Part shown: positions 6,759 to 22,648 of the stretch, piece by piece
Numbering within the stretch: position 1 is the stretch's first letter
Layout of the letters: each line of letters starts with the position of its first letter
DNA from: a virus
Lineage: Duplodnaviria; Heunggongvirae; Uroviricota; Caudoviricetes
IMG/VR virus record: IMGVR_UViG_3300018411_000017
Reading direction: 5' to 3' (one strand)
DNA: 64,000 bases
The notes under the pieces: model-generated
The model's database searches: none
Told to the model about the DNA's origin: nothing
The model's input: the letters and a program-made list of their open reading frames with translations, nothing else
Program-made: the position numbers and the translations under genes

Positions 6759-6908
6759 AAATTTTTTGAATTAAAAAACTTGTAAATATTAATAATATAA
6801 AAAATAAAAATATAGCTAACCATGGGTCTATAAAATTAAAGAGCCATGCTATTATATTTATGTCTAAGATAATCGCAACAGCAATTATCATTATAAGCGC
6901 AAATTGTT

Positions 6909-7303: not shown

Positions 7304-7312
7304 AATACTAAA

Positions 7313-7714
7313 TTATTTGATTTCTTCCATCCATTGTTGGATGGTAATTTCCATTGAGCTAGTTCTTTTTGCTAGTTTCGGGAAAATACCGCTATAAACA
7401 GATTCAACTTCTACTTCTTCTCCTTTTATAAATAATGCCAGATCTGTTTCATCTTTAACATAAGCCTCTTCAGATATATCAACGACGACTGTCCTCGTTA
7501 AAGGGTTTTCAGAACTAACGGTCATGGTCCTTTTAATCTTATTTTTTGTAATGATTTTAGATTTATTCGCTACAGGAATACTTGTAGCCGTTTCAAATAG
7601 AATATCTAAAGCAGATTCATGTTGTTCTTCCGGTAAAAATGAAATTAAATTTGCAACGGCAGAATTTTCAATTTTAGCAGTTTCTAATATTTTTTTAATT
7701 AGTTTTGAATTCAT
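7313..7714 (-). CDS. hypothetical protein
   Basis: 133-aa ORF. Confidence 0.5.
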   Translation of the reverse strand: MNSKLIKKILETAKIENSAVANLISFLPEEQHESALDILFETATSIPVANKSKIITKNKIKRTMTVSSENPLTRTVVVDISEEAYVKDETDLALFIKGEEVEVESVYSGIFPKLAKRTSSMEITIQQWMEEIK

Positions 7715-8067
7715 AATTCTTTATTTTTAATATAATTATTTATTTTTTCTTTCAGATTTTCAAGATCATTTGTATAATCTTTTAGATATACTATCTCAAT
7801 ACGAGATCCTTTAATTGAGCTTTCGCCTATTTGTTCGGTATAATATTTTATATTATTAATTCTTTTAGCAGACAATCTAAACCCGGCAACTGAGGAGACA
7901 ACTTGATCTTTTAATGATTTCTCCATACGCTCATGGGTTGAGTGAGCAAACACGCATCTCACATCTTTAAGTATTCTCATTAAAATCTCAACTTCTGTTC
8001 CGTTTTGTACGGCAATAACAACATCATGATCAAGATTAAAATGTTCAATTTGTTTTGTTATCTTCAT
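7711..8067 (-). CDS. hypothetical protein
   Basis: 118-aa ORF starting MKI. Confidence 0.5.
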   Translation of the reverse strand: MKITKQIEHFNLDHDVVIAVQNGTEVEILMRILKDVRCVFAHSTHERMEKSLKDQVVSSVAGFRLSAKRINNIKYYTEQIGESSIKGSRIEIVYLKDYTNDLENLKEKINNYIKNKEL

Positions 8068-8254
8068 TTGTTATTTCTTTAGCGTATTTCCATTTTTCAG
8101 TTGTTTCACTCCATGCGGCTTCTTCAAATGTTTCCGCTCCATGCCAAGCTTCATATCCACCCGTTATTTCCTGAATAACAACTCTTTTAAAGCCCTTATT
8201 TTCCGATGTTATTTCTTGATTAGAAACCATCATAATTTTTGGATATTCATTCAT
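8045..8254 (-). CDS. hypothetical protein
   Basis: 69-aa ORF. Confidence 0.4.
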   Translation of the reverse strand: MNEYPKIMMVSNQEITSENKGFKRVVIQEITGGYEAWHGAETFEEAAWSETTEKWKYAKEITNEDNKTN

Positions 8255-8282
8255 AATGTTTAAGTTTTTTAGTTAATAGTAG

Positions 8283-8351
8283 TTCCCCTTATAGGATTCA
8301 AACCTATGAAATAAACATTTGTTTATTGTTTTATCTCTAAACTAAAGAGGA
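8283..8351 (-). ncRNA. tRNA-like element with miniaturised anticodon arm
   Basis: Minus-strand fold: acceptor TCCTCTT/AAGGGGA, D-arm GTTT-AGAGATA-AAAC, T-arm ATAGG-TTTGAAT-CCTAT, but only a 4-bp/4-nt hairpin (AAAC-AAAT-GTTT) where the anticodon arm should be. Confidence 0.45.
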
Positions 8352-8647
8352 TTCCGATTTCTTTAAACATAAATTAGCATTCTATGCAAGCGCATTTTAC
8401 GTTTTGGATGAAATCAATCCAGCAAATTAAGTTAGATTAACCGTATTCTGGTCATGTAACTTATCTTAGGCTATTTGCAAGCCTATGTAGATAACCAAGT
8501 CTACCGCTTGCCTATTGATCAGATAGGTTTTTTCAAAGCACATGATAAGACAATATATAATCTTATAATCGGCTTTTAGAGATATGTCATCAACGTACGC
8601 GCTATTCATTTATTGTCCGTTTTTGTTTGCATATCTCTATTCTTTAT

Positions 8648-9061
8648 TTAAATTTCATATTTAAAATATACGAAATTATCACTTTGTTTAATTATCTTAA
8701 AGTCATTTTTTAAATGCCAATTAATAGATGGAGTATTTGATACTTCTGCTATACTATATAAATCCATTGGAAAATTCATTATAAAACTTTTAAATAACAT
8801 TGTCGCCAACCCTATCCGTTTTATATTAGAACTCAAGTCACATAGCATATATGAATTTGGTTTTAACCAATCTAAATAATCGTCCAATTCTGGTTCTTCA
8901 AATTTTATAGTATAAATTAATTTAACTTCAAATTTGCTTCGTGGTGCGTGAATACCTAGATTAAGATGGCTTTTAATTGCTGAATAACATTTAAAAGTTT
9001 CATCATTTATATCAAAACAAAAATCAAATGTTTCATTACTGTTTTTATCAAAGCATTTCAT
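8648..9061 (-). CDS. hypothetical protein (weak GNAT-like RxxGxA motif)
   Basis: 137 aa; KRIGLATMLF resembles GNAT motif A, but this is weak. Confidence 0.4.
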   Translation of the reverse strand: MKCFDKNSNETFDFCFDINDETFKCYSAIKSHLNLGIHAPRSKFEVKLIYTIKFEEPELDDYLDWLKPNSYMLCDLSSNIKRIGLATMLFKSFIMNFPMDLYSIAEVSNTPSINWHLKNDFKIIKQSDNFVYFKYEI

Positions 9062-9065
9062 GATA

Positions 9066-9485
9066 TTATGGTTTTACAAATAAAACTCCATGTTTTGCAT
9101 TGTCTCTAAATCTAACCAATCTAACAAATCCCCTAAGTATTACCAAGCAAGGAATTTCTCTTTTTTGTTTTTTTGATTTAGACCAAAAAAAAGCGGATTG
9201 ACCTACTCCGTTAGTGATTGATTCAAAACAATATCCAGATAACGGAAGCTTTAGGCATTTATTTTCATCATTTAAATCTATTAAATTATTTGCAAAATAA
9301 CAGTATTCATTTTTAATAACATATGGGGATTTGCTTAATAATTCAAGTTCTGATTCAGTTGGCAATCTTTTAATTCCTGTATTCTCCATGAGCATAGCAT
9401 CCTTATAAAAATATAAATCTTTTCCAACATCTTTATAGAAATCAATGCCAGCTATATTTATTATATAACAATATCCTATTTTCAT
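9066..9485 (-). CDS. family C: FISUMP-like domain protein (no signal peptide)
   Basis: GIKRLPTESELELL ; LKLPLSGYCF ; AFFWSKS ; C-terminal VRLVRF. Confidence 0.55.
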   Translation of the reverse strand: MKIGYCYIINIAGIDFYKDVGKDLYFYKDAMLMENTGIKRLPTESELELLSKSPYVIKNEYCYFANNLIDLNDENKCLKLPLSGYCFESITNGVGQSAFFWSKSKKQKREIPCLVILRGFVRLVRFRDNAKHGVLFVKP

Positions 9486-9901
9486 AACTTATTCATTAAT
9501 AGAAAAGACAATTCAACGTCATAAGCTGCTGCCTGTACTCTTAATTCACGTTTATTTGAAAACGTAAAACATTTATCTCCATCCCCAAATCTATAAAATC
9601 CAGTATCATCGTGAACAATTGAGCTGGCTAACCATCTAAACCCCGTTGGAGGTAGTATTAATCTTTGGCTTGGTATATCAAGATTTTCTAAAGATTCAGC
9701 TATAAGTAAATGATTCTCGCTTATTTTGTGAGGTAATTTCAACAAAGCATTAAAAGCTTCTTCTGTTAATAATTGCATATTATGAGACTTTGCCATCTCT
9801 AAAGTTTCTTCGTAAGAAGATAATCTAAATGCTGTTTTATGGATAAAGAATCCTCCTAATTTAATTGAATTTGGATTTGGATTTTTAGCTTCTATTTTCA
9901 T
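9482..9901 (-). CDS. family C: FISUMP-like domain protein (divergent)
   Basis: QLLTEEAFNALLKL ; LILPPTGFRW. Confidence 0.45.
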   Translation of the reverse strand: MKIEAKNPNPNSIKLGGFFIHKTAFRLSSYEETLEMAKSHNMQLLTEEAFNALLKLPHKISENHLLIAESLENLDIPSQRLILPPTGFRWLASSIVHDDTGFYRFGDGDKCFTFSNKRELRVQAAAYDVELSFLLMNKL

Positions 9902-10332
9902 GGCGTTTTTAATAATATAGGTTGTCCATAAGATGAATCCGAATAAAATATTCTAATTCTATTATCTTTATTAAAACATAAATATGGCTGATTCTCCGTT
10001 GGATTTGGATTAGTGTTTTGTAACCAATAATAGCCGCCTATGTTTTTTCCAATAAATCGTTTTTGATTCAAATGATTATTATAATATCCCAATCTAGGGA
10101 ATTCAATCCTTCTATTTTCATCATCTAACCAAATACCTTGTTCTGCTATATAAAGACTAGTTGAGTCGTGTTTCCTTGGAAGAGTTAAAAGCAGTTCCAT
10201 TTCATGTTTACTAATCAATACTTTTCCAACAGACTCGGCGTACTCAATAGCTTGCTTATAGTTGAAATAGCCATTAATGGGTTTTTGATCAAACTTAATC
10301 CCTTTTATCTCAAATTGTTTTCTTATTTTCAT
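9898..10332 (-). CDS. family C: FISUMP-like domain protein
   Basis: EFPRLGYYNNH ; GGYYWLQN. Confidence 0.5.
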   Translation of the reverse strand: MKIRKQFEIKGIKFDQKPINGYFNYKQAIEYAESVGKVLISKHEMELLLTLPRKHDSTSLYIAEQGIWLDDENRRIEFPRLGYYNNHLNQKRFIGKNIGGYYWLQNTNPNPTENQPYLCFNKDNRIRIFYSDSSYGQPILLKTP

Positions 10333-10346
10333 AATTATTGTTGGTT

Positions 10347-10793
10347 TTATAAATCTGAAACAAAACGAACTGTAAATTTATATTCGCGAAAATACCTATC
10401 TACACCAGGGATTGAATCGCTATCAAAATATAGATGAGTTGCATTGTCTTCTGATAAAGAAGAATCAGCCCAATATATTCCAATGTCATAAACGCCATAA
10501 TTAGGCGTAATACTTTTGGGAGGGCAATACCCGCCAGAAGGTAAAAACAATGAATAGTTTGTTTTTAAATCTCTAACATCATTTGCATACCAAATTCCAC
10601 GATTATCTTTATCATATAAATAATGTAATTTATTAAGATTGCGAAATTCTTCTGGAGTTGGCAGTCTCTTATTTCTTATATAAGCTTGATGCATCGCATC
10701 TTTATGAGTGAAATGAGCTATATCTCCATCTTTAAAATTAGATATATCCCATTTCAATCCATTTAATATAACATAATCACCTCCTATCTTCAT
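10347..10793 (-). CDS. family C: FISUMP-like domain protein
   Basis: ILNGLKWDISNF ; KRLPTPEEFRNL ; SLFLPSGGY ; IYWADSS ; C-terminal FTVRFVSDL. Confidence 0.6.
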   Translation of the reverse strand: MKIGGDYVILNGLKWDISNFKDGDIAHFTHKDAMHQAYIRNKRLPTPEEFRNLNKLHYLYDKDNRGIWYANDVRDLKTNYSLFLPSGGYCPPKSITPNYGVYDIGIYWADSSLSEDNATHLYFDSDSIPGVDRYFREYKFTVRFVSDL

Positions 10794-11053
10794 AATCTAT
10801 AATAATTGTTTTCACTTTTATAAAAGAAGAATGTAGGATTCCCTTTAATTTGACATATCTGCAACCATTCCGTTTGGAATAAAGTGTAAGAATAAGCCAC
10901 AGACACATATGTATTGTCAGTTATATCATATAAAAAAACTTCTTTACTAGGAATATTTACCATTAGAAACATTACCTCATGTTTTTCTATGGTTTCCTGT
11001 TTTACGCAACTAGTTAATAAAACAAGTAATAATAATATGACTAAATGTTTCAT
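10790..11053 (-). CDS. small lipoprotein
   Basis: 87 aa; signal peptide with lipobox LLTSC. Confidence 0.45.
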   Translation of the reverse strand: MKHLVILLLLVLLTSCVKQETIEKHEVMFLMVNIPSKEVFLYDITDNTYVSVAYSYTLFQTEWLQICQIKGNPTFFFYKSENNYYRL

Positions 11054-11065
11054 GTTTTTAATATT

Positions 11066-11482
11066 TTAATAAATTGATTTTATTATAAAATTACGATCGT
11101 TACCTTTTGGTATAAGTTTATTTAACTTTTCTTTATCTTCTATATCACAAACGCTTGTTTGGCTTCTTTTAAGATTGTTAATAGATGAATTAATTTCTAA
11201 AACTATTCTGCTTTCATTATCATCATATACAGATCTATATATATTTAATAGCAAATAATCCGAATTGGAAATAGAAAAAGGTTTATTTACTATTTCTAAC
11301 AACGCAACTTTATAAGTTCCATATGGAATATCTAATCTATGAAAATATTGGAATAAACAACCTGCGCTATATGGATCATGAGCAATTCCGAATTCAGGTT
11401 TGCAAAACTTAATTCTTAACATTTTAAAATGGTCATAATATATATAAGCTTTTATGCAATTATTTGAATTTATTATTTTCAT
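11066..11482 (-). CDS. hypothetical protein, family G (1 of 2)
   Basis: 138 aa; KAYIYYDHFKMLRIKFCKPE resembles the N-terminus of the neighbouring ORF. Confidence 0.5.
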   Translation of the reverse strand: MKIINSNNCIKAYIYYDHFKMLRIKFCKPEFGIAHDPYSAGCLFQYFHRLDIPYGTYKVALLEIVNKPFSISNSDYLLLNIYRSVYDDNESRIVLEINSSINNLKRSQTSVCDIEDKEKLNKLIPKGNDRNFIIKSIY

Positions 11483-11880
11483 AAAACAATTTTAAATCTA
11501 TAATATTTTCCTGTCTTAAATCCGAATTCATCGTATATATCAAAATAAGTAGTCCAATTAGAAAATAGAGAAAAAGCATTTCTGGCTTGAAATTTTATCC
11601 GATTAAGAGATGCACTAAAAATAGATATCATAAATTCCGTTTCTATAAGAAATGTCAAATCGTCCATTTCAATTAACAATACCTCTCTACATTCTCCTGG
11701 CAAAATTTGAGGGAAAAAGTAATTATCAATACTCTGATATGGACCGTTATAACAATGGTATACTATTTGACCTTCGCCAACCGATCTACATTCCGGTTTA
11801 TAATAAGATATACTTAGATTATTATTTGAATTTCTATATAAATACATCTTTAACCCATTACCTTTTGATGATATTTTCAT
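11479..11880 (-). CDS. hypothetical protein, family G (2 of 2)
   Basis: 133 aa; KMYLYRNSNNNLSISYYKPE. Confidence 0.5.
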   Translation of the reverse strand: MKISSKGNGLKMYLYRNSNNNLSISYYKPECRSVGEGQIVYHCYNGPYQSIDNYFFPQILPGECREVLLIEMDDLTFLIETEFMISIFSASLNRIKFQARNAFSLFSNWTTYFDIYDEFGFKTGKYYRFKIVL

Positions 11881-12317
11881 AACTTTATTAATTTTAAAGA
11901 CAATTGATATTCCATATTAAAGGATGGAGCAGAATCGGCATGAATAAATCCGTTTGATAACATAATAAAGCAACATTTTCCTTCTTCTTTTTCTTTTGCC
12001 CAATAAAATCCACTTCCTAATGCTATTGGAGGCCTATTTTGTTGCCTATAACCTTGTATTGTGTTAAACCTCAAACATTTGTTAGGATCAGATAAATATT
12101 CTTTTTTTGGAGATAGATGACACCATCCATCTTCATATATTCTTTGCAGCTTAATAAGACCTGAAAAATCCTCCTTATCTGGTATTCTGGCATCAAATCT
12201 TTCGGCTAGAAATAAAGCTTCTTCATAAAGCATATGAGGACATCCTTTTAATGTAATGTCTTCTTTAATCCAAAAAAAACCATTTATTTCAATTGTCTCA
12301 ACTTTTTTTATTTTCAT
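11877..12317 (-). CDS. family C: FISUMP-like domain protein
   Basis: INGFFWIKEDI ; ARIPDKEDFSGL ; GFYWAKE ; C-terminal LSLKLIKL. Confidence 0.55.
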   Translation of the reverse strand: MKIKKVETIEINGFFWIKEDITLKGCPHMLYEEALFLAERFDARIPDKEDFSGLIKLQRIYEDGWCHLSPKKEYLSDPNKCLRFNTIQGYRQQNRPPIALGSGFYWAKEKEEGKCCFIMLSNGFIHADSAPSFNMEYQLSLKLIKL

Positions 12318-12757
12318 AATTTAATTAGCTTTAAACTAAATAAAAAATCCTGTACTCGAATATTTGATGGTGATTGGACTTTGGATTCATTGAAAAATAA
12401 ATAAGATCCATATTCATTTTCTATATCATCCAAATCGCACCAATAACAGGCTGTTGTTGCATTACTATCATCCGATTTTACATATATCCATCCATTAAAT
12501 TTAAATCTTAAAACATTGAATCCTTTTTTGAGTTCCTCATTTGTTTCAGCAAAAATCCATTCGCTTGTTTCTGGAATAAATTTATGAGATAATTTTAATA
12601 GTTTTTTATAATCGTCTGAATTCGGAATTCTTGCTTTATACTTTTTAGCCAAATGTAAAGCTTCTATATTAGAAACATTAACTCGCCCTTCAAATGATAT
12701 GTCTTCTTTAATCCACGTAATACCATTTAAGGTTATACAACTTTGTCCTATTTTCAT
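12314..12757 (-). CDS. family C: FISUMP-like domain protein
   Basis: LNGITWIKEDI ; ARIPNSDDYKKL ; CYWCD ; C-terminal FSLKLIKL. Confidence 0.55.
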   Translation of the reverse strand: MKIGQSCITLNGITWIKEDISFEGRVNVSNIEALHLAKKYKARIPNSDDYKKLLKLSHKFIPETSEWIFAETNEELKKGFNVLRFKFNGWIYVKSDDSNATTACYWCDLDDIENEYGSYLFFNESKVQSPSNIRVQDFLFSLKLIKL

Positions 12758-12837
12758 TACTTTTCTTTATTAAAAACCCCTCAAGCTATTACTAGCATTG
12801 AAGGGTTAAACAATTTATATAATAGAATTGAAGTTTT

Positions 12838-13065
12838 TTATTCACTTATATATGCCATAGATTTGATATCTTTCAAAAATCCTATTTCAATGCCATATAC
12901 GCCATCTTCTGTTATTTCCGATACATCTTCTATTAAGCTTTCCGAATCATCCTCATACAGCCTATAAATAGGCTCTACGTTTAAACTGTATATCTTTCTA
13001 GCGCAATCAGTGTTTATGACTTTCCAAACAAACTCATCGTCTTTAGTTATTTTTAAATTCAACAT
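12838..13065 (-). CDS. hypothetical protein
   Basis: 75-aa acidic ORF. Confidence 0.4.
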   Translation of the reverse strand: MLNLKITKDDEFVWKVINTDCARKIYSLNVEPIYRLYEDDSESLIEDVSEITEDGVYGIEIGFLKDIKSMAYISE

Positions 13066-13070
13066 AATAA

Positions 13071-13358
13071 TTATTTTATAGTATCACCAACAGATATTGA
13101 ATTATATTCGTAATCTGTAATAATTAAATGTACATAAGTAAAGTTATTACCCAATGTTATTGCACCGGATTGCTTTTTACTTAATACGACGAATCCAGTA
13201 AAACAAGCCAAAGGTCTATTCTTTATTATTCTTATAGTATCAGTCTCAATTTTTGTAGATTTTATTGGTTTTTTACCTTCTTGAAATCCAATATAATAGC
13301 TTATTCCAGCTATCATAGATGTCAATATTAAAATTGTTATTAATATTCCTGTTTTCAT
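13071..13358 (-). CDS. membrane-anchored small protein
   Basis: 95 aa; N-terminal TM or signal segment. Confidence 0.45.
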   Translation of the reverse strand: MKTGILITILILTSMIAGISYYIGFQEGKKPIKSTKIETDTIRIIKNRPLACFTGFVVLSKKQSGAITLGNNFTYVHLIITDYEYNSISVGDTIK

Positions 13359-13359
13359 A

Positions 13360-13560
13360 TTATGTAAATAAATTTATTCTATTTTTTAAACATTCAAGAT
13401 AAATCCCCATAGCACCGGATTGCATGGTTAACAAGCTTTTATAAATTGGATCTATTTGATTTGATTTTTCACATATTAAAAAATCATTCAATTCATTTAA
13501 TTTCAATTCCAACTCATATGCTTCATTTATTAAATCTTTTTTGATAATAAATTTTTCCAT
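13360..13560 (-). CDS. hypothetical protein
   Basis: 66-aa ORF. Confidence 0.4.
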   Translation of the reverse strand: MEKFIIKKDLINEAYELELKLNELNDFLICEKSNQIDPIYKSLLTMQSGAMGIYLECLKNRINLFT

Positions 13561-13582
13561 ATTTTATTATTTTAAAATAACC

Positions 13583-13686
13583 AGTGGAGAGAGTAGGAAT
13601 CGAACCTACATAAGTTGTCAAGCTTAATACATCTAGGGTTGACAATCCCATCATTGAGTATTTGCGTTTCCACTCCGCCATCTCCC
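13583..13686 (-). tRNA. atypical long tRNA-like gene (about 104 nt, class-II-like, anticodon unresolved)
   Basis: Minus strand: acceptor GGGGAGA/TCTCTCC (Ser-like), D-arm GCG-GAGTGGAAA-CGC, T-arm GTAGG-TTCGATT-CCTAC. The central region carries a perfect 7-bp hairpin TTGTCAA(17 nt)TTGACAA and is too long for a standard tRNA. Confidence 0.4.
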
Positions 13687-13761
13687 CTTTAAAACACTTT
13701 TTAATTATAATGGCAAAAAGTGCAAAATCCTTAGTCGAAAACGCAAAAGAAGGTTTATCGA

Positions 13762-13947
13762 CTAATAATTATCTGTAATAGATTTTTCTAATTCACGTTT
13801 TAGATAAACTCTAAGCTTTTTGGATATTATCTTTCTAATTCGTTTCTTGCGATCAGATTGATAATCTCGTGTGCCCCATGTTTTCGTACGAAAAACAGCT
13901 AATCCAGAATTATCTATTGTACTAATTAACTTTTTACCGGTTGCCAT
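13762..13947 (-). CDS. small basic protein, possibly ribosomal protein bL33-like
   Basis: 61 aa; MATGKK..FRTKT..R....KLRVYLKRELEK has the same residue spacing as bL33 (MAKG..FYTTTKN.R..KLEL.K..HVIYKE.K); call is tentative. Confidence 0.3.
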   Translation of the reverse strand: MATGKKLISTIDNSGLAVFRTKTWGTRDYQSDRKKRIRKIISKKLRVYLKRELEKSITDNY

Positions 13948-13973
13948 AATTTAAATTGAGTGTTTTTTGTAAA

Positions 13974-14228
13974 TTAATTATAGTCAATTATACGAACCCA
14001 GAGATAAAAAGGCTTATCAAAGCTGATATGTTCTCCATATTCGTTAACCGTCCCAGGCGCATAGTGAGCGTGTCCAAAGTCCACTTCTATAGTGTAATAA
14101 TCAATTTCATAATATCCTTTTTTATATCCAACAATTGGATAAAATTTGCCATTAAACTCGAATTTAATTGAGTCTCCTATTTTATATTTAAAATAATCAT
14201 CGATTCTTTTTTTTTTCAGTATTTTCAT
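13974..14228 (-). CDS. family E small protein (1 of 2)
   Basis: 84 aa; MKILKKKRIDDYFKYKIGD...IVGYKKGYY, paralog of 23562..23813. Confidence 0.5.
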   Translation of the reverse strand: MKILKKKRIDDYFKYKIGDSIKFEFNGKFYPIVGYKKGYYEIDYYTIEVDFGHAHYAPGTVNEYGEHISFDKPFYLWVRIIDYN

Positions 14229-14514
14229 CAGTTAGTATTTCAAAATGCACACATTTTCCATCAGATCTTTCTAAACAACTACATTGGCCTCTAACTTCTT
14301 TTATTTTTTCTATAGTACAATTGTATAATATGTTATTTATTTTAAAATAGCATTTATCACAAGATAAACCAGGAGATTCTAAACAAATAAATGGAAGCCC
14401 ATCATAAGTAAAAACTTCTCCTATTTCTCTTTCTTCTTTGAACATTTTTAATATTTTCATATCATATTTTTTCAACAAAACATACAAACATGAAATCTTC
14501 TCTTCCACCGGCAT
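14197..14514 (-). CDS. family D Cys-rich mini-protein
   Basis: Internal MKILKMFKEEREIGEVF is the probable start; Cys pattern C..C..C..C. Confidence 0.5.
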   Translation of the reverse strand: MPVEEKISCLYVLLKKYDMKILKMFKEEREIGEVFTYDGLPFICLESPGLSCDKCYFKINNILYNCTIEKIKEVRGQCSCLERSDGKCVHFEILTDENTEKKKNR

Positions 14515-14689
14515 AGCATGATCCAGTTATATCTTCATCTCTATTTCCACAGTCTAAACTATAAGATGTATTAAAAATGCACATTTCACATGATGAGGAA
14601 TCCGCTTGAACACATTCCAATAATTTTCCTTTATGATAAAAAGTCTCTCCGATTTTTCTTTCCTGAACTTTTTTTTGTTCTATTTTCAT
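14462..14689 (-). CDS. family D Cys-rich mini-protein
   Basis: 75 aa; IGETFYHKGKLLECV...CEMCIF...C...GSC...FMFV. Confidence 0.55.
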   Translation of the reverse strand: MKIEQKKVQERKIGETFYHKGKLLECVQADSSSCEMCIFNTSYSLDCGNRDEDITGSCYAGGREDFMFVCFVEKI

Positions 14690-14910
14690 AATATTTTTTT
14701 ATATATTATATAGCACTTATCGTCTCTAAAAGTTTCACTGCAAGAGTGAAAAAAAGGAAGCCAAGGCTTTGCACAACTAGCACGCATAGACCCTTCATTT
14801 CTTTGAAAGCAACATCCATTACATCTATTTTCTTTCGATGCTCTATCTAATACTCCATATCTATCGCCTTGAAATCTTATTACTTCTTTATATTTAGGAA
14901 GTATTTTCAT
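14686..14910 (-). CDS. family D Cys-rich mini-protein
   Basis: 74 aa; Cys-rich (CNGCCF..C..C). Confidence 0.5.
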   Translation of the reverse strand: MKILPKYKEVIRFQGDRYGVLDRASKENRCNGCCFQRNEGSMRASCAKPWLPFFHSCSETFRDDKCYIIYKKIL

Positions 14911-15146
14911 TCTGTTACTTCTTTAAAAATAACATTCTCTTTATCTCCTCTGGAAGTCCCAACGCAAGAACCTAATACTTTTCTTCCTGGTTTAAGACAC
15001 ACTATGCCTTTACTATAAAAACAACACCCAGAGCATACATAAGTATTAGGATTGTACTTTTGACATGTATATTTTTTTCCGCGATATTCAATGGTATCTC
15101 CTATTCTAATATAATAATCTTCTAAAGGTATTTTTTCTATTTTCAT
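14907..15146 (-). CDS. family D Cys-rich mini-protein
   Basis: 79 aa; IGDTIEYRGKKYTC...CSGCCF..C...GSC...VIF. Confidence 0.55.
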   Translation of the reverse strand: MKIEKIPLEDYYIRIGDTIEYRGKKYTCQKYNPNTYVCSGCCFYSKGIVCLKPGRKVLGSCVGTSRGDKENVIFKEVTE

Positions 15147-15367
15147 TATCTTACTTTTTTAAAAATAACTCCTGTTAAATCATATCTACTTATATTAGAG
15201 CAATATCCAGTTATATGTTTAATATTATTGCAATTTATTTCCATATCAGAGAAGTAACAGTCGATACAGCTATACGCTTCTTCGACACATTCTAATTGGG
15301 TCCCATCTTCTAATGTAAACCTATCTCCAATAGAATGCTTGTCTTTATTTATTTTAGATATTTTCAT
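15146..15367 (-). CDS. family D Cys-rich mini-protein
   Basis: 73 aa; IGDRFTLEDGTQLECV..CIDCYF..C...GYC...VIF. Confidence 0.55.
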   Translation of the reverse strand: MKISKINKDKHSIGDRFTLEDGTQLECVEEAYSCIDCYFSDMEINCNNIKHITGYCSNISRYDLTGVIFKKVR

Positions 15368-15560
15368 ATTGTTTCTTTTTTTTACTGTTTTTCCAAGATC
15401 TAAAACCTGTTTTAAAGCGAATTCTTTTAGGCCTATTACATCCTCTATGTAACTTACATATAGTACAAAAAAATTCTTTTTGTTTTATGTAAGTCTTATA
15501 ACAAACATTAAAAACGTGTCTATTATCAGTTGTTTCATAATTGTATTTTAGTCTATGCAT
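15354..15560 (-). CDS. small basic Cys-containing protein
   Basis: 68 aa; FCTICKLHRGCNRPKR; lysine/arginine-rich. Confidence 0.4.
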   Translation of the reverse strand: MHRLKYNYETTDNRHVFNVCYKTYIKQKEFFCTICKLHRGCNRPKRIRFKTGFRSWKNSKKKKQYENI

Positions 15561-15675
15561 AATATTTTGTTTTAGATAAAATAAATAAAGAGTGATACAT
15601 TGTGTACCACTCTTTTCACATATTAGTCTTCACAGATTTGTATGCGACTAAACTTATAAAATATGAAAAATATAG

Positions 15676-15747
15676 TACCGCGTAGAGGAGTCAAACCTCT
15701 TTTCTGCATTTGAGAGATGCAAGTCCTAATCGGTAGACGAACGCGGC
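15676..15747 (-). tRNA. tRNA, anticodon CTC (Glu-type), non-canonical D/T loops
   Basis: Manual fold on minus strand: acceptor GCCGCGT/ACGCGGT (6 WC pairs plus G-U); D-stem GTCT/GGAC with D-loop ACCGATTA (no GG); anticodon stem TGCAT/ATGCA with loop CTCTCAA; 4-nt variable loop; T-arm AGAGG-TTTGACT-CCTCT (U in place of C56). Confidence 0.55.
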
Positions 15748-15774
15748 GGAGGGCTAACGACGTAGCCCATATCG

Positions 15775-16194
15775 TTAAACAAGTTCTTTTACAACTCGTT
15801 TCTTTACAATTTTATATTGAATATCAATCCAATCCATTATATCTTTTGATGTTTTAAAAACGTCATGAGAAGTATAATCCATTGGACTTTTTTCCTTCTT
15901 TAAATACAGTGCAGAGTTATGAGCGATATTATATCCAACTTGTATGATAACATTTTTGTATTTAAAGCCTTCAAAAGACCTTAATGCGTCACATAAATCA
16001 AGGCATGTTTTGTAGTCATCAAAATAAAGTATTTCGTCTTTAAAATATGTTTTATTTAAGGCATTTACATGATTAGTACATTTAATTGGATAATCATACC
16101 ATTTGAAGAATCCTCTTTTTTGTATATTATATTTGTTTTGAGTTTTCCCTAATCCATTTATTATTGAGGTTTCTATAATTCTGAATTTCTTCAT
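15775..16194 (-). CDS. hypothetical protein, family F (1 of 2)
   Basis: 139 aa; MKKFRIIET... is a distant paralog of 25344..25757 (MKMKRYRIVEIV..., shared ..IIQVGY/IIIGYD and C-terminal K..V.KE). Confidence 0.5.
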   Translation of the reverse strand: MKKFRIIETSIINGLGKTQNKYNIQKRGFFKWYDYPIKCTNHVNALNKTYFKDEILYFDDYKTCLDLCDALRSFEGFKYKNVIIQVGYNIAHNSALYLKKEKSPMDYTSHDVFKTSKDIMDWIDIQYKIVKKRVVKELV

Positions 16195-16195
16195 G

Positions 16196-16387
16196 TTATT
16201 CTTTTAAGTCATTTTCGGATTCTTCTTTGGAATCTTTTTTTATTTGATTATTTACATTAATACATTTATAAACTATAAATACAGCTCCTATTACCTCTAT
16301 AATTATTACCATAGAAATAATTGCGAATATCCAAATTGCAATCATATTTTTTCCTTTTTTTTTACATTGTTCTATATTATCTTTCAA
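16196..16387 (-). CDS. small membrane protein
   Basis: 63 aa with one TM segment. Confidence 0.4.
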   Translation of the reverse strand: MKDNIEQCKKKGKNMIAIWIFAIISMVIIIEVIGAVFIVYKCINVNNQIKKDSKEESENDLKE

Positions 16388-16620
16388 ATTTAAAAAGGTA
16401 TTTCTAAAATAGTAGAATTAACTACTCAAAACTAAATACCAAGACTCTTAGAGTTAGTTTTCTATGAAAGCATATCTAATTACGTATATAGTCTTCCTGT
16501 GCTTATCCTCTTTATATATTCACATACTTAAAGATTGGAAGCGTACCCATTATGACTATCATGTATTCAAAATAACTTATTGGGATATTTTGTTTTTACA
16601 ATGTATATTAATTTATTTAA

Positions 16621-16821
16621 TTATTTCTTTAGCACCGGTATCTCCATCCAATGTGTGACACCTATAAGTTCATAATCTTCAGCCCAATTAGAATACCATT
16701 TATTATCAGACTTATCGTAATAACCAACAGTAGACGCGTGATTAAATACTAATACATCTTCTGACCAAACCTGACCATCAACACATTCAGGTAATCTTTC
16801 ATTTACAGGTATCCAATTCAT
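16621..16821 (-). CDS. DUF551-like phage protein
   Basis: 66 aa; MNWIPVNERLPE...VTHWMEIP matches the DUF551 signature (WI.V.ERLPE ... THWMPLP). Confidence 0.5.
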   Translation of the reverse strand: MNWIPVNERLPECVDGQVWSEDVLVFNHASTVGYYDKSDNKWYSNWAEDYELIGVTHWMEIPVLKK

Positions 16822-17212
16822 TTTCGTCTGTTTTAGTTTTATCGACTTTAACGCTATCTTTAAAACAAAAATCAGGAACCTTAATTATTGGCCTATCAAA
16901 CACTTTAGAATGAAAAGCTCCAACAAACCAGTTACTTTTTAATTCTGACTGATCTTCGAGAATCCGATTGACTTCATATAAATTCTTAACATCTTTTAGA
17001 GAAAGATGATTGTTGGATATTTTATAATTTAAATCGTCATAATTATCTTTGATAAATGTACGATTATCATTAGTGACGCTAAACGTTCCTACTATTATAA
17101 AGAAAAATATAATAGTTAATGCCAAAAACAATAAACCAAAGCAATCGTTATCTGTTATTGTACAAATTATAAATAAACAAAGGCATACTGTAAATATAAT
17201 TATTATTCCCAT
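16799..17212 (-). CDS. membrane protein
   Basis: 137 aa with two N-terminal TM segments. Confidence 0.45.
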   Translation of the reverse strand: MGIIIIFTVCLCLFIICTITDNDCFGLLFLALTIIFFFIIVGTFSVTNDNRTFIKDNYDDLNYKISNNHLSLKDVKNLYEVNRILEDQSELKSNWFVGAFHSKVFDRPIIKVPDFCFKDSVKVDKTKTDENELDTCK

Positions 17213-17241
17213 ATCTGTTTTAATTATTATTTTTTTATATT

Positions 17242-17700
17242 TTAAACATCTTGAACAAGTCTAATGCTTAACATTTGACTAAAACTCCCATATTCTAAAT
17301 CATGGTTTTTATCTCTAAACCATAAATAATATGGAGTATTTCCTTTATTAGTGCTAGCAGACCAATATCGGCCTTTAAAGCCTATATCAAACCCTTCATT
17401 TGGTGCAAGTATCGAAGAACTCCCCATGGCTGGAAGAAATAAAGACTTACTAGTACCTAATTCGTTATGTTTATTAGCGAACCATACGCCTTTTCGCTCT
17501 CCGTCCCATTGATGGCACAAGTCAAATAAATCTGATAATTCTTCGTTCGTAGGTAATCTCTTATTCTTATGATTGATTAATTCTACAGCTTCATCTCGAG
17601 TGAAATAAATTTTATTTAAATAAAGTTTATTGTTTATAGAGAAATTTTCAGTATCCCATAAAATTCCATTTAATTCTATCCTTCTATCACCTATTTTCAT
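17242..17700 (-). CDS. family C: FISUMP-like domain protein
   Basis: ELNGILWDTENF ; KRLPTNEELSDLF ; SLFLPAMG ; RYWSAST ; C-terminal LSIRLVQDV. Confidence 0.6.
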   Translation of the reverse strand: MKIGDRRIELNGILWDTENFSINNKLYLNKIYFTRDEAVELINHKNKRLPTNEELSDLFDLCHQWDGERKGVWFANKHNELGTSKSLFLPAMGSSSILAPNEGFDIGFKGRYWSASTNKGNTPYYLWFRDKNHDLEYGSFSQMLSIRLVQDV

Positions 17701-18062
17701 ACTTTAAAATTTGAAATTTTCGAATATTCATTATTTTGTCTTTCTATAGACACTTTAACGTGGTCCCAACAAAGGGTTAGTGCTTTTAGGTATTTAATAT
17801 CATATTCTGGTAGTTTCTTTTTACCACTTAAATAATTATCAAACTTATAATCATCAGAACTTCTTTCTTCTGTTATAACTTTATAGAATCCAGGGTGCCA
17901 TTCTGTTAACATTATTTTATTTTCATTCGCTTTTATTGTTAGATATAAATCATCTTCTACTTTGATTTTTAAATTCCAATAAAAGTGATAATGTGATTTA
18001 ATCCATTTACAAATAGACATCCAATTCTCGATTAAACATATATCTATTTCTTTACCTTTCAT
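17697..18062 (-). CDS. hypothetical protein
   Basis: 121-aa ORF. Confidence 0.45.
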   Translation of the reverse strand: MKGKEIDICLIENWMSICKWIKSHYHFYWNLKIKVEDDLYLTIKANENKIMLTEWHPGFYKVITEERSSDDYKFDNYLSGKKKLPEYDIKYLKALTLCWDHVKVSIERQNNEYSKISNFKV

Positions 18063-18073
18063 TTCTTTATGTT

Positions 18074-18565
18074 TTAAATGTCTTTCACCAACCTAAGAGG
18101 AAACTTTAATCCAGCTACATACATGACATTACTCATATTTACTTTATTAAACCAAAAGCAATTTTTTTCACCAAATGGATAAATATTCGCAATTCTCCAA
18201 TATATACCGATATTGTATTTTGAATGTATTTTATTATCGCAACAATCGAACCACCCTTCAAATGGCATATGTATAAACATATTCTCATCTAAATCTTTAT
18301 CAATATAAAATTTAGCTCCATTATTTAGTCCTTTATTGTTGTCTGCGACCATTTCTAGTTCAAATAAATCTTTTACATCATCCTTATTCGGCAGTCTTTT
18401 ACCTAAACTATTAGCTATTTCCATAGCCTCCTCATAAGTAAAATACTTATGATCTCCTACAATGGTATTTGTTAAATCCCATATTGTATTATTGATTCTA
18501 ATCCCTTTAGATATTTTCATCGACAAATTTATTTGTAATATTAAAATAAGCTTTAATTTTATCAA
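18074..18565 (-). CDS. family C: FISUMP-like domain protein
   Basis: Internal MKISKGIRINNTIWDL is the probable start; KRLPNKDDVKDLF ; IYWRIAN ; C-terminal PLRLVKDI. Confidence 0.55.
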   Translation of the reverse strand: MIKLKLILILQINLSMKISKGIRINNTIWDLTNTIVGDHKYFTYEEAMEIANSLGKRLPNKDDVKDLFELEMVADNNKGLNNGAKFYIDKDLDENMFIHMPFEGWFDCCDNKIHSKYNIGIYWRIANIYPFGEKNCFWFNKVNMSNVMYVAGLKFPLRLVKDI

Positions 18566-18836
18566 AGTCAGGAAATCCTGAAGCTCTTATCCTACTACCT
18601 ACTATAGTATCGGCTGAAATATTATTATATAAATAATCTATTAATTTTGAAAAAGCTTCTTCTTCGGAGTCACCCGTAAATATTTCACTATATTTAAGGC
18701 CTACCAACCAATTACTAGATATATACCATTTTTTATTATATTTATCAAAATAAGTACATGGATAAATCTTAGAATTAGCTTCTTCAATAAAACTTAAAAA
18801 ATCATTTAATGCTATTTTCTTCTTTAATATTTTCAT
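18507..18836 (-). CDS. hypothetical protein
   Basis: 109-aa ORF starting MKILKKK. Confidence 0.45.
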   Translation of the reverse strand: MKILKKKIALNDFLSFIEEANSKIYPCTYFDKYNKKWYISSNWLVGLKYSEIFTGDSEEEAFSKLIDYLYNNISADTIVGSRIRASGFPDFDKIKAYFNITNKFVDENI

Positions 18837-19052
18837 AATATAAAAATTAAATAATAAAAGGCGTGTTGTTAAACCAAAAGATGCTTTACTAGCAATTATG
18901 AAGATAATTTACCCACTACTAATAATACATTATACAATTATTTATTCTGTCTTTTTCAACTTATAATTGCGTGATTGTATAACTATATTAGTTCTTCTAC
19001 GTGTTCTACTCTTTAAACGATGGACACTTCCAATCCTACGTACCTTTTATTA

Positions 19053-19529
19053 TTAAATTAAATTACACATTTCTTGTAATGCATCATTCAAAGCTTCTTC
19101 ATAAGATGAAAAATCTTTTCCGCATACACCATCATAAGGAGGTCGCTCTATTTCATTTTGTGGATCTAATTGCACATCTATGATCTTATAAGTATAACCC
19201 GCAAATGTTGGTATAATGGCTGGATGTAACTTATGTTTGTCTCTGAACCATTTCTGAGCTACGTGTAATTCTAGCAATGGAACGACAATCTGTCTTTTAA
19301 TGGCTCCATTATCTAGTTTTTCTTCATAGCTATCACAGAAAGGGTCATAAGACTCTATTTCTTCCCATTCAGTCCAATTGGTTGGATCTTTTCTTTCTTC
19401 AGGATTCATTGATTCACAATGAAAGTTGATTCTACGTAGAATCATTTTGCAAGGTTTATTATAACCTTTTGCTTTAATTCTTTTTGCAGTTTCAAAGCTT
19501 GCATAACCATTAAATGTCAAGTTTGTCAT
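19053..19529 (-). CDS. hypothetical protein
   Basis: 158-aa ORF. Confidence 0.5.
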   Translation of the reverse strand: MTNLTFNGYASFETAKRIKAKGYNKPCKMILRRINFHCESMNPEERKDPTNWTEWEEIESYDPFCDSYEEKLDNGAIKRQIVVPLLELHVAQKWFRDKHKLHPAIIPTFAGYTYKIIDVQLDPQNEIERPPYDGVCGKDFSSYEEALNDALQEMCNLI

Positions 19530-19555
19530 AAGTGTTTATTTTATAAATTATTAAG

Positions 19556-19627
19556 TACTCAAACCAGGAGTTGAACCTGGGCTTCATGGATATAAGCCGT
19601 GCGTGCTAACCGTTACACCATTTGAGC
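19556..19627 (-). tRNA. tRNA, anticodon TAT (Ile-type, AUA decoder)
   Basis: Manual fold on minus strand: acceptor GCTCAAA/TTTGAGT; D-arm GTGT-AACGGTTA-GCAC; anticodon stem CACGG/CCATG (one C-A mismatch) with loop CTTATAT (U33, A37); 4-nt variable loop; T-arm CCAGG-TTCAACT-CCTGG. Confidence 0.55.
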
Positions 19628-20010
19628 GTTTGCCTTTTACACCTAAAACTAATTATACACCGTACGCCTACATAGTAGATTACGATTAATCAGAAACTGG
19701 TGTTCTCGAGGTCTTGAAAAGTTATTGAGTTTTTTAACCTAAAAACAGCTTACGAATATAGTATAAATGGGATTTAATATTATTTAATATTATTACCAAA
19801 CACATCAAGTATGTTACTATACTTAAGCTGAAAAAACTGACATTAATTATTAGTTTTTACTCCCTTAGTCATGCCCCTAAGCAGGCTTTGTAATCATAGG
19901 TCTTCGTAAGCCTATAATTGGTTTCATGCACAATATAGTATTTCAACTATATTTACTAAATAGATAGCTTTAAGCCTCTATTCACTCCAGTGCACTAGAA
20001 CATTATATAA

Positions 20011-20049
20011 CCATGTTTCTCAATAGTCCAAGAAACATGGGCGTTTTTA
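20011..20049 (+). terminator. strong hairpin followed by T-run (intrinsic-terminator-like, plus-strand orientation)
   Basis: CCATGTTTCT-caatagtcca-AGAAACATGG then GCGTTTTTA; lies in an ORF-free gap inside the minus-strand gene block. Confidence 0.4.
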
Positions 20050-20272
20050 CAATATATCATGAACACAACGGTCTAGATGTTTGATCATTGTGTTTAATCC
20101 ATAATATAGAAAAACTATACTTTTCTTTTATTCTCCAGAGCTTTAATGATGTTTGCAACCATTACTAAAGATGTTGGATAAGAGGATCTATCTCTTGCCA
20201 GGACTTTATATCCACACTATTATCCTAACTTTAATAGTGTGAATCTAGTTTTAAAGGATCTAGAAACCTAAT

Positions 20273-20620
20273 CTATAAATCTAATCGCTCTAATATCGGA
20301 GTTAATTTATCTTTCAACTCAGGATAATAGCGATACATGGTCGTTCTTGCATTCAATGATTTATCAGGTTTTGTTAAAGAACTGCACTCCCAATCTATTA
20401 TCATTGAAGTATAGTTTTTCCAAACAATGCTTTCAGGATGATGAGAGCTGAATTTGCGGTGAATCTTTTGTACGTATTTATATGGCATAATTAATCTAAG
20501 CCAAGGCTTATACCAATCATGAAATAAATGATACGGTTTCCAAACACCTAACAACACAGCGGTCATATTAAAAGCCAACCAATGAGCAAACCAATAAGAA
20601 AAAGACGATTTTTTATACAT
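20273..20620 (-). CDS. hypothetical protein
   Basis: 115 aa, Trp/Tyr-rich. Confidence 0.45.
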   Translation of the reverse strand: MYKKSSFSYWFAHWLAFNMTAVLLGVWKPYHLFHDWYKPWLRLIMPYKYVQKIHRKFSSHHPESIVWKNYTSMIIDWECSSLTKPDKSLNARTTMYRYYPELKDKLTPILERLDL

Positions 20621-20625
20621 AACAG

Positions 20626-21087
20626 TTATTCTAAATCTTTAACACAGCGAACTGTAAATTGATAATCGCCACTAATATAACCTTTTGAGATATAATCTCT
20701 AGCTCCACAAAAATAAAAACGATTACCTCTGATTGCTTCATCTCTTCCAGATCCCCAAAATTGAAAAGAATTAGGTTCATCTATAATATCACATTCATAA
20801 CGGCTTTTATAGCCTAAAAATGGTAAAAATAAAGATTGATCTGTTTTTAAAAGTTTTTTCTTTTCAGCAAACCATATTCCACGTAACTCCTTGTCTTCAA
20901 TTCTATATAAATTTCGTAATTGATCAATATCAAAACGATCTGGAAGTCTTTTCCCTTCTTGCAAAGCCAATCTTGTGGCTTCTTCATGCGTAAAATGGAC
21001 TTGACCAGAAACAGTTAAATTAGATCTGTCCCAAGCTGTGCCATTTAATATGATAATATCGTTTTCGGGTTTTTTAACAATCTTCAT
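20626..21087 (-). CDS. family C: FISUMP-like domain protein
   Basis: ILNGTAWDRSNL ; KRLPDRFDIDQL ; SLFLPFLGY ; C-terminal FTVRCVKDLE (canonical FISUMP end motif). Confidence 0.65.
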   Translation of the reverse strand: MKIVKKPENDIIILNGTAWDRSNLTVSGQVHFTHEEATRLALQEGKRLPDRFDIDQLRNLYRIEDKELRGIWFAEKKKLLKTDQSLFLPFLGYKSRYECDIIDEPNSFQFWGSGRDEAIRGNRFYFCGARDYISKGYISGDYQFTVRCVKDLE

Positions 21088-21405
21088 TTAAGGTAACCTT
21101 TCAATTATAACATTCGACTTAGCCCACTCCCATGTATCATAGCTAATAAAACCCCAATTTGGATTGTCTTCATCTGGATCAAATGTGTAATATTCAAACG
21201 TATAATTTTTATGCATACCCCAGTCACAAGATTCATATATTTCTTGAGCTAATTTCGTATCAATAGCTTGTCCAAAGTTATTAAGCAAAGTAACTCGATA
21301 TATTGGCTTGCCATGATTTCTATCAAAATCAACTTTTCGATCACATCCATGACAACTGCAAATTAAAAGGACAAGCGTTATTAACAATAATATCTTTTTT
21401 ATCAT
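21088..21405 (-). CDS. lipoprotein
   Basis: 105 aa; signal peptide with lipobox LLICSC. Confidence 0.5.
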   Translation of the reverse strand: MIKKILLLITLVLLICSCHGCDRKVDFDRNHGKPIYRVTLLNNFGQAIDTKLAQEIYESCDWGMHKNYTFEYYTFDPDEDNPNWGFISYDTWEWAKSNVIIERLP

Positions 21406-21731
21406 TTTTCTTTCATGTTTTTAAGAATGTTATAGACTTTAATCTTGTTATATATTCTAGACACTAAAATATATATCAGACAAAACATTATAAATATAGA
21501 TTCAATGGTTATAGCAAACCAAGAGAATAAACCAGATAGTATAACCAATATCCATTGAATATGGCTAGTGTAATACAAATCTTTGATTCCTAATAGACTT
21601 ACCATAATACTCATGGAAATGATAGAACCAATTCCATAAAGTAATATGCCAAATAAAATTAACATTATCATACTATAATCTCCATAAAAGATATAACATG
21701 TAAATAAGAAATATCGTAGCAAAAATGCCAA
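21402..21731 (-). CDS. membrane protein
   Basis: 109 aa, multi-TM. Confidence 0.4.
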   Translation of the reverse strand: MAFLLRYFLFTCYIFYGDYSMIMLILFGILLYGIGSIISMSIMVSLLGIKDLYYTSHIQWILVILSGLFSWFAITIESIFIMFCLIYILVSRIYNKIKVYNILKNMKEK

Positions 21732-22032
21732 AAGAAACGAAGAATCCTATTGAAAGTATTGTATCTATAACAGGATAAACTTTTATTTCTGGAATTTGGC
21801 ATATTACAAATGGTACAAATAATGTTGCGGCTATTTTAGCTGACACGACAGCTATACGTAAAAAGAATTCAGCTATTTTAGTCATAAAGCTTATCAATAT
21901 CATAGTCAAATAAATAATCAAATAAATTACCGATCTTATGAAACCAATTCTTTTTGGGTTTAAATCGGAAGTATTTATTTGGATCTTCTTCAGGATATGG
22001 ATATACTCTTCGAACTTTCCAACCTTTTTCAC
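21673..22032 (-). CDS. membrane protein (overlaps next ORF; one of the two is probably shorter)
   Basis: 119 aa, multi-TM; 155-nt overlap with 21878..22267. Confidence 0.35.
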   Translation of the reverse strand: MKKVGKFEEYIHILKKIQINTSDLNPKRIGFIRSVIYLIIYLTMILISFMTKIAEFFLRIAVVSAKIAATLFVPFVICQIPEIKVYPVIDTILSIGFFVSFGIFATIFLIYMLYLLWRL

Positions 22033-22267
22033 TGTAAATCTTCATTAACTCTGATACAACATCTTCAGACATATCTTTTTCAATACTTATAAAATCTGGA
22101 GATTTTTTAGCTAAATCCAATATTTCATAATCATAAATGTCAACCCATCCTTTTTTATATTTTCTTACTAGTAAAAGGTTGATAGTTTCAATTATCAGGC
22201 TAGGATCAGTTTTTTTAAGCGACTTAACCTCATCAGGTGTTAACGCTTGAGATCTACTAATTTTCAT
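21878..22267 (-). CDS. hypothetical protein
   Basis: 129 aa starting MKISRSQ. Confidence 0.45.
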   Translation of the reverse strand: MKISRSQALTPDEVKSLKKTDPSLIIETINLLLVRKYKKGWVDIYDYEILDLAKKSPDFISIEKDMSEDVVSELMKIYSEKGWKVRRVYPYPEEDPNKYFRFKPKKNWFHKIGNLFDYLFDYDIDKLYD

Positions 22268-22273
22268 AATAAT

Positions 22274-22645: not shown

Positions 22646-22648
22646 AAT

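Follow-up and report, generated by a model that had tools for sequence, protein, structure and literature searches.

Cysteine-rich mini-protein genes in a large tailed phage belong to a very large family of putative zinc-binding modules

Large phages carry multigene families in accessory regions that are hyperplastic, and small zinc-binding modules are also known to form tandem arrays. Zinc ribbon and rubredoxin-knuckle domains are small, cytoplasmic and mostly beta, with four cysteine ligands, the first pair of which forms a CxxC motif after a beta-hairpin. Here we consider two clusters of cysteine-rich genes in a 64,000-nucleotide stretch of DNA (hereafter the window) from a Caudoviricetes virus, IMG/VR record IMGVR_UViG_3300018411_000017. 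Five genes lie at 14197..15367 and two at 22649..23099, all on the minus strand. They are functional genes under purifying selection and form an expansion, specific to this lineage, of a very large family of uncharacterised domains of about 65 residues (the Cys family). The overall picture that we consider moderately likely is that of a mini-domain in which four cysteines hold one zinc ion, and which has been diversified into an array of binding modules.

How do these genes compare with the systems already described? The Cys family resembles the zinc ribbon and rubredoxin-knuckle domains in all of the features listed above. However, its second pair of putative ligands does not form a knuckle (C-x7-GxC in copy 5), the ligand region is predicted to contain two helices, and no solved member of those classes matches in structure or in sequence. 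The only library family that matches is phrog_33085 (PHROGs v4), which is annotated as 'unknown function'. The match spans the CxxC...GxC...R.D...VIF region and is found with copy 6 (E = 2.7e-8), copy 7 (E = 1.6e-4) and copy 4 (E = 1.7e-3); copy 2 matches weakly (E = 0.049), and copies 1, 3 and 5 are unmatched at E <= 0.1. Relatives with multiple repeats also match phrog_33085, but this entry carries no function and the Cys family is far larger, with about 4,356 clusters at 50% identity. Pfam and NCBIfam scans of all Cys copies, and of the adjacent family E proteins discussed below, gave nothing significant, and a search of the literature on csAssE and on cysteine-rich tandem phage proteins found nothing relevant. 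The family is already catalogued (as a PHROG and as 'uncharacterized' UniProt entries), yet it is unnamed and unstudied.

The multigene families of large phages offer the closest parallel in organisation. As in those families, the Cys genes are tandem paralogues with diverged surfaces, their copy number differs between close relatives, chimeras between paralogues are found, and the same unit may be a gene of its own or be repeated within one chain. This parallel points to multivalent or diversified binding without proving it.

Seven Genes of One Family

The first-pass annotation of this DNA proposed that all seven open reading frames (ORFs) form one family. A profile made from the seven copies matches only those seven ORFs in the window, but this test is circular. 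A second profile was therefore built from 16 distant homologues taken only from other lineages (alignment A5), and was searched against 818 six-frame ORFs of the window. It matches exactly seven ORFs, with E values from 3.6e-20 to 1e-8, while the next ORF is at E = 0.2. These are the five ORFs of the first cluster and the two of the second, at the positions first proposed and on the minus strand, which bears out the claim of a single family.

In the order of transcription, cluster 1 begins with copy 5 (15146..15367, 73 amino acids (aa), E = 6.8e-15 with the independent profile), the first family member of the array. It is followed by copy 4 (14907..15146, 79 aa, E = 5.6e-15), copy 3 (14686..14910, 74 aa, E = 1e-8), copy 2 (14462..14689, 75 aa, E = 5.2e-16) and copy 1 (14197..14460, 87 aa, E = 4.1e-13). 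The open frame of copy 1 runs up to 14514, but the start is most likely the internal ATG AAA ATA (encoding MKI) at 14460, one base past the stop of copy 2. Cluster 2 consists of copy 7 (22881..23099, 72 aa, E = 9.5e-19) and copy 6 (22649..22873, 74 aa, E = 3.6e-20). The junctions within cluster 1 are tight: copies 5 and 4 share a TAATG stop/start overlap, ATGA overlaps join copy 4 to copy 3 and copy 3 to copy 2, and the 3' end of copy 1 overlaps the start of a family E gene, E1, by 32 nt in a different frame.

The shared motif that was first described stands in part. All seven copies carry four cysteines, which are in register with one another, but the cysteine of the proposed L.CV element is subtype-specific (43%) and is not a conserved position. 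The C-terminal VIF is literal in copies 4, 5 and 7, while the others end in IIF, VHF, VCF or IIY. Copy 3 is the most divergent; it has no IGE motif and has HSC in place of GxC.

Are these ORFs functional? In six orthologous pairs between the window and L002, a syntenic relative, the pooled proportion of nonsynonymous differences (pN, 0.142) is lower than that of synonymous differences (pS, 0.318), giving a pN/pS of 0.45 (Fisher p = 6e-10). The ratio of nonsynonymous to synonymous substitution rates (dN/dS) is 0.29-0.38 per gene: 0.38 for copy 5 (against L002), 0.35 for copy 4, 0.29 for copies 3 and 2, and 0.29-0.37 for copy 6. Many neighbouring genes have values of about 0.04-0.2. Each paralogue has its own conserved set of orthologues across many metagenomes; that of copy 2 comprises 28 orthologues with 77-96% identity. 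The significant excess of synonymous change is difficult to reconcile with decaying duplicates or with chance open frames in AT-rich DNA, as are the separate orthologue sets, the functional residues that are invariant over about 4,000 clusters, and the ordered coupling of starts and stops. A non-functional origin would accord with the short length, AT-richness and lack of annotation of these ORFs, and with the copy 5 orthologue in L002, which has no ATG start. Nevertheless, it is so improbable that we regard it as effectively refuted, and the ORFs are not out-of-frame remnants.

The wider family was explored by an exhaustive profile search of 1.84 billion cluster representatives, in which 4,356 proteins match at E <= 1e-3, and 572 still do so at E <= 1e-10; the larger figure is a count of clusters at 50% identity. 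Members occur as single domains of 63-80 aa, as 2-6 tandem repeats in one polypeptide (P0121, P0123, P0126 and P0166), and occasionally as fusions with DUF6378. The repeats are joined by acidic or Q/P-rich linkers, and uncharacterised domains follow them at the C-terminus. When multi-domain relatives were scanned with Pfam and PHROG, DUF6378 and further copies of the Cys domain were the only matches.

Every source context examined is a phage or prophage. In other phages, the genes are found in the early or replication-gene region, amid small genes of no assigned function. The csAssE-Sib member adjoins helicase and primase genes, the member on a 64-kb contig (L004) lies between clamp/methylase genes and DnaB, and a member in a Mu-like prophage is located in the early region, beside DUF3164. 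Two cultured Bacteroides phages are carriers. BT2 (L009) has gp44 plus a weak match, gp43 (3980..4204, 4188..4421), and BC679P1 (L010) has three copies, genes 00028, 00031 and 00032 (3971..4204, 4262..4489, 6603..6818). In both phages the copies are annotated 'hypothetical protein' and lie within replication-gene modules. A tblastn search of phage records with a Firmicutes-type member gave no match, and an IMG/VR scan with a single protein found no relative.

Predicted Fold and Candidate Metal Site

Conservation was assessed in an alignment of 112 diverse sequences (A6), using the numbering of copy 5. Three of the four cysteines, C34, C37 and C56, are conserved in 100% of the sequences, and C46 in 98%. 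All four thus remain in register throughout the alignment, whereas cysteines that did not align would have counted against the family. G14, E15, F17, G54, R61, D63 and F69 are each conserved in at least 90% of the sequences, with R61 at 98%, D63 at 99% and F69 at 97%. The cysteine pattern of copy 5 is CxxC-x8-C-x7-GxC, and loop lengths differ over the family.

An AlphaFold2 (AF2) model of copy 5 made from the same 112 sequences has a predicted local distance difference test score (pLDDT) of 86.7 and a predicted template modelling score (pTM) of 0.74; the pLDDT of the five models ranges over 84.5-86.7. An earlier model from 57 sequences was mediocre (pLDDT 75.5). The predicted strands are at residues 16-18, 24-29 and 67-71, and the predicted helices at 38-41 and 46-53. 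In the predicted layout, strands 16-18 and 24-29 form a hairpin, and the CxxC at 34-37 runs into helix 38-41. Helix 46-53 would start at the third cysteine and be followed by Gly54-x-Cys56, while the final strand, 67-71, bears the VIF motif. Thus, the N-terminal beta-hairpin (IGExF...L.V) and the C-terminal strand (R.D...VIF) would make up a three-stranded sheet, to which two short helices may be pinned by the four invariant cysteines. The fold is predicted with confidence but has no solved relative: a search of PDB sequences with the Cys-family profile gave no match at E <= 10, and in the BFVD viral library every one of the proteins that match best in structure is uncharacterised; these come from sipho-, myo-, herelle- and crAss-like viruses.

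What do the cysteines bind? The seven proteins are small and hydrophilic, with four to seven cysteines per ~75 residues, and none has a signal peptide, a hydrophobic N-terminus or a membrane segment; they are predicted to be cytoplasmic. The simplest reading is that the four cysteines chelate one Zn2+ ion per domain. A single structural Zn(Cys)4 site is most probably present, because all four cysteines are invariant in proteins that are hydrophilic and lack a leader. The first-pass annotation had taken the proteins to be most likely small and zinc-ribbon-like, citing the lack of a signal peptide. Their small size, hydrophilic character, lack of a leader or membrane segment and four near-invariant cysteines all hold, but the likeness to a zinc ribbon does not.

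A zinc ribbon has two CxxC-type knuckles, one on each of two beta-hairpins. The Cys domain is small, has four conserved cysteines including one CxxC, and has predicted strands flanking the cysteine region, all of which would suit a classical zinc ribbon of the small nucleic-acid-binding or transcription-factor type. However, it has only this single knuckle, ligands three and four (C46 and C56) are 10 residues apart around predicted helix 46-53, and no structural likeness to solved zinc ribbons was found. The empty search of PDB sequences at E <= 10 argues in the same direction, and the spread of isoelectric points (pI) from acidic to basic is unlike that of a uniform nucleic-acid binder. We therefore consider zinc ribbons very unlikely. 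Nor do the proteins resemble treble clefs, in which ligands three and four come from the first turn of one helix and are 2-3 residues apart; here, C46 starts helix 46-53 and C56 lies past that helix, 10 residues later. A Cys4 site can hold iron as well as zinc, and four to seven cysteines in about 75 residues might also form disulfides, so that the proteins could be redox carriers (rubredoxin-like or Fe-S) or exported, toxin-like peptides. This is very unlikely as well: there is no signal peptide or hydrophobic segment, the domain is repeated in long proteins and no examined multi-domain member begins with a hydrophobic leader, the paired CxxCG knuckles of rubredoxin are missing, and no Pfam or NCBIfam redox family matches. 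In both ligand spacing and predicted fold, the Cys family differs from the known small zinc-binding classes that were tested.

Diversification and Origin of the Clusters

The seven copies are diversified paralogues, as was first proposed. They share 22-45% identity, each has its own orthologues, and their pI ranges from 5.0 to 9.3. Within every orthologue group, the four cysteines stay constant, as do the hairpin at the N-terminus and the R.D...VIF strand. Substitutions are concentrated just before the CxxC, within it, between the CxxC and the third cysteine, and from the third cysteine to a few residues beyond GxC. Chimeras are present in metagenomes: P0055 combines the N-terminal half of copy 7 with the C-terminal half of copy 5, and in P0056 the N-terminus of copy 7 is fused to a copy-6-like protein.

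Have the two clusters arisen by duplication, or do they have separate histories? The first-pass annotation proposed a segmental duplication of a two-family module, but the evidence speaks against this. The clusters are not linked by any DNA repeat of more than 65 nt, and gene order differs: in the direction of transcription, cluster 1 has five Cys genes followed by E1, whereas cluster 2 has a second family E gene (E2), a FISUMP-like gene and then two Cys genes. Copies 6 and 7 are each other's best matches (68 bits). The clusters also belong to different subtypes. All cluster 1 copies score higher on subtype A (ERKIGExF.Y.G), while copies 6 and 7 score 12-29 bits higher on subtype B (KEFKIGExFQFGL) than on subtype A (79.1 versus 50.5 bits for copy 7). 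Subtype B is widespread in other phages. Since cluster 2 is of subtype B and cluster 1 of subtype A, the split between them is at least as old as these subtypes, which are common to many unrelated phages. The neighbour-joining tree is without bootstrap support and is indicative only. Judged by these comparisons, the two clusters are of separate origin.

Copy number turns over rapidly and differs between related genomes, which is a further point against a segmental duplication. L002 has five copies in cluster 1, including the copy 5 orthologue without an ATG, and a single copy in cluster 2. Copy 6 has a 65% identical orthologue in both L002 and L006 (a 153-kb relative, ena:ERZ27292795:k141_551394), while neither has an orthologue of copy 7 at the cluster 2 position. 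In L006, the orthologues of 18074..18520 and 10347..10793 are adjacent; therefore, a block of ~7 kb with all of cluster 1 is missing at that position. Cluster 2 of L006 consists of two tandem E genes and one Cys gene. The array probably arose through old tandem duplications, together with single-gene cassettes that were gained or lost.

A few genes upstream of each Cys cluster lies one member of a separate two-member family, G (15775..16194 and 25344..25751), encoding proteins of ~135-139 aa. This pair was considered as a trace of a larger segmental duplication and rejected: the two share only 35% identity (E = 7e-17), and both are absent from L002 and L006. The G copies look like independent insertions of single-gene cassettes.

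The other half of the proposed module is family E. E1 (13974..14228, minus strand, 84 aa) has no cysteine, whereas E2 (23562..23813, minus strand, 83 aa) has five. They are true paralogues, with 44% identity (E = 4e-11); dN/dS is 0.07 for E1 and 0.32 for E2, and the orthologues of E1 have 88-94% identity. The statement that a family E gene flanks each cluster is correct in that both ORFs are real paralogues, but their placement differs: E1 is directly downstream of the cluster 1 array, and E2 is upstream of cluster 2 across the FISUMP-like gene. The two-family module itself is not upheld. Family E has 45 database relatives, all of them orthologues of E1 or E2 in this phage lineage, compared with about 4,356 clusters for the Cys family. 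No family E ORF was found beside the Cys genes of six more distant loci (L001, L004, L007, L008, L009 and L010), and a separate check of L001, L004 and L005 also found none. Searching PDB sequences with the E profile gave two chance-level matches only (E = 1.6 and 2.5). Family E is a neighbour particular to this lineage and not an obligate partner. Against this, the chance that both E genes would lie within two genes of a Cys cluster is ~1% (our own rough placement estimate, made without a tool), and there may be some lineage-specific linkage between the Cys and E genes. The idea that it is a degenerate member of the Cys family was rejected: hhalign gave a probability of 30.6% over the first 28 columns only, which include the MKI start that is common to ~31 unrelated genes.

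Possible Roles and Genomic Setting

What might an array of such proteins do? The domain would have a rigid core, whereas the loops near the putative metal site differ in both length and sequence, and the paralogues differ in net charge. These variable loops and differing charges make a set of binding modules the most likely role. Each copy would be a small binding module, the loop surface of which determines the host or phage protein or nucleic acid that is bound, and the array of paralogues might supply several specificities against host or phage targets. The modules would be made from a tightly packed, translationally coupled block of early or accessory genes. Membership of the family, coding status, conserved cysteines, the fold prediction, variable copy number and genomic setting are shown; zinc binding, a binding function and a host-directed role are inferred, and early expression is deduced from where the genes lie and on which strand. 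Host proteins or defence systems are possible, but less than probable, targets. A bolder proposal is that the domain is a zinc-binding fold not described before, which phages use as a compact scaffold whose loops are hypervariable. It would then provide a repertoire of binders directed at host factors or at defence proteins, deployed as arrays of coupled genes or as 2-6 repeats, and renewed by duplication, cassette exchange and recombination between paralogues. We consider this distinctly unlikely.

The main alternative is that the proteins are replication-associated accessory factors, which bind DNA, the replisome or a host replication component. Single-copy members beside genes for helicase, primase, DNA polymerase, sliding clamp and methyltransferase (csAssE-Sib, L004, BT2 and BC679P1) point to such a role, as does the member in a Mu-like early region. 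However, small uncharacterised genes of all kinds gather in the early and replication regions of phages, and this context is unspecific. The arrays in the window lie amid dozens of unrelated paralogue families with no replication genes nearby, and seven copies of divergent charge would not be expected for a single replisome partner. A role in replication is therefore unlikely. Some observations also weigh against a diversified set of binding modules. The dN/dS is below 1 for every copy and positive selection is not demonstrated; the variability of the loops could reflect relaxed constraint. No domain fusion, neighbour or database entry yields a function, all matches being 'hypothetical' or 'unknown'.

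The Cys family is well defined but functionally blank, and is not a new mechanism. Small genes without assigned function dominate phage genomes, and the Cys family has thousands of clusters and is modelled by neither Pfam nor NCBIfam. To a phage specialist, hypothetical ORFs rich in cysteine will be no surprise in an accessory region; the family is a reasonable target because it is large, its fold is cleanly predicted and cultured phages carry it. Experiments are made possible by the Bacteroides phages BT2 and BC679P1. If the loops fix the target of each copy, seven-copy arrays would offer a simple model for the diversification of host-directed effectors by phages, and the Cys domain might find use as a small binder that can be engineered.

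The phage to which the window belongs is a large tailed phage of the gut, with a G+C content of about 29%. The first ~32 kb of the window contain about 80 small minus-strand genes, nearly all unannotated and rich in paralogue families, while the hallmark genes lie beyond 39 kb: a 2,155-aa tail-fibre-like protein, GroEL (48264..49853), the large terminase and the portal protein. Megablast of 13000..24500 against 50,697 phage records gave no match; therefore, the phage has no close sequenced relative among those records. The window is syntenic with related metagenome contigs (74 kb and 153 kb). Because the nearest cultured carriers of the domain are Bacteroides phages, the host is likely to be one of the Bacteroidota.

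The string of genes that contains cluster 1 is headed by an ORF for a basic, cysteine-containing protein of 68 aa (15354..15560, minus strand), which overlaps copy 5 by 14 nt. It has no Pfam match, is 87% identical in L002 and has a dN/dS of 0.06. Just upstream of this string, and following a tRNA-Glu(CTC) gene found by ARAGORN (15675..15747, minus strand), a terminator scan located a terminator-like hairpin (15587..15615, minus strand). Together, the tRNA gene and the hairpin mark the upstream boundary of the cluster 1 transcription unit. A scan for sigma-70 promoters was at chance level (18 found versus 18.7 expected) and is uninformative for a probable Bacteroidota phage. The FISUMP-like gene between E2 and cluster 2 (23106..23543, minus strand) matches TIGR02145 (E = 1.7e-3) and Lcl_C (E = 1.4e-3), and belongs to neither the Cys family nor family E. 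In a Pfam scan of ten neighbouring genes, the only match was DUF7448, at 22274..22645. A 153-aa protein with a dense cluster of cysteines is encoded at 24235..24696; it is 93-97% identical in relatives and has no Pfam match.

Other features of the accessory block were noted. The FISUMP-like (Lcl_C-like) family is the largest expansion in the window, with ten paralogues of ~145 aa (TIGR02145, E = 1.7e-3; PF07603, E = 1.4e-3) at 9066..10793, 11877..12757, 17242..17700, 18074..18520, 20626..21087 and 23106..23543. The members seen have an MKI start and no evident lipoprotein leader, and their dN/dS of about 0.3 is near that of the Cys family. Further tandem arrays, at 2702..4675 and 597..2257, encode seven or eight proteins of ~85 aa with a W..T.EG..YW motif and three paralogues of ~190 aa. 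The start ATG AAA ATA (MKI) is shared by 31 of the roughly 80 genes of the early block (1..32000, minus strand), from at least six unrelated paralogue families, and by none of the 29 genes beyond 32 kb; examples are at 14460, 14689, 14910, 15146, 15367, 22873, 23543 and 23813. This common start could be due to a translation-initiation context that the genes share, or to conserved gene boundaries, which would make the exchange of cassettes easier. A tRNA-Ile(TAT) gene, whose product reads ATA, is located at 19555..19627. Genes for tRNAs are scattered through the accessory block, all on the minus strand (15675..15747, 19555..19627, 13585..13687 and 4691..4762). ARAGORN reports Glu(CTC) and Ile(TAT); Rfam lists Ile(TAT) and two more tRNA matches, one of 103 nt, but not Glu(CTC). 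Outside the accessory block, the large terminase is encoded in two ORFs (51235..52128 and 53236..54444), both of which match phrog_6681, with an ORF for a phrog_4645 endonuclease between them (52192..53052). This arrangement suggests that the terminase gene has been split by an intron or by the insertion of a homing endonuclease.

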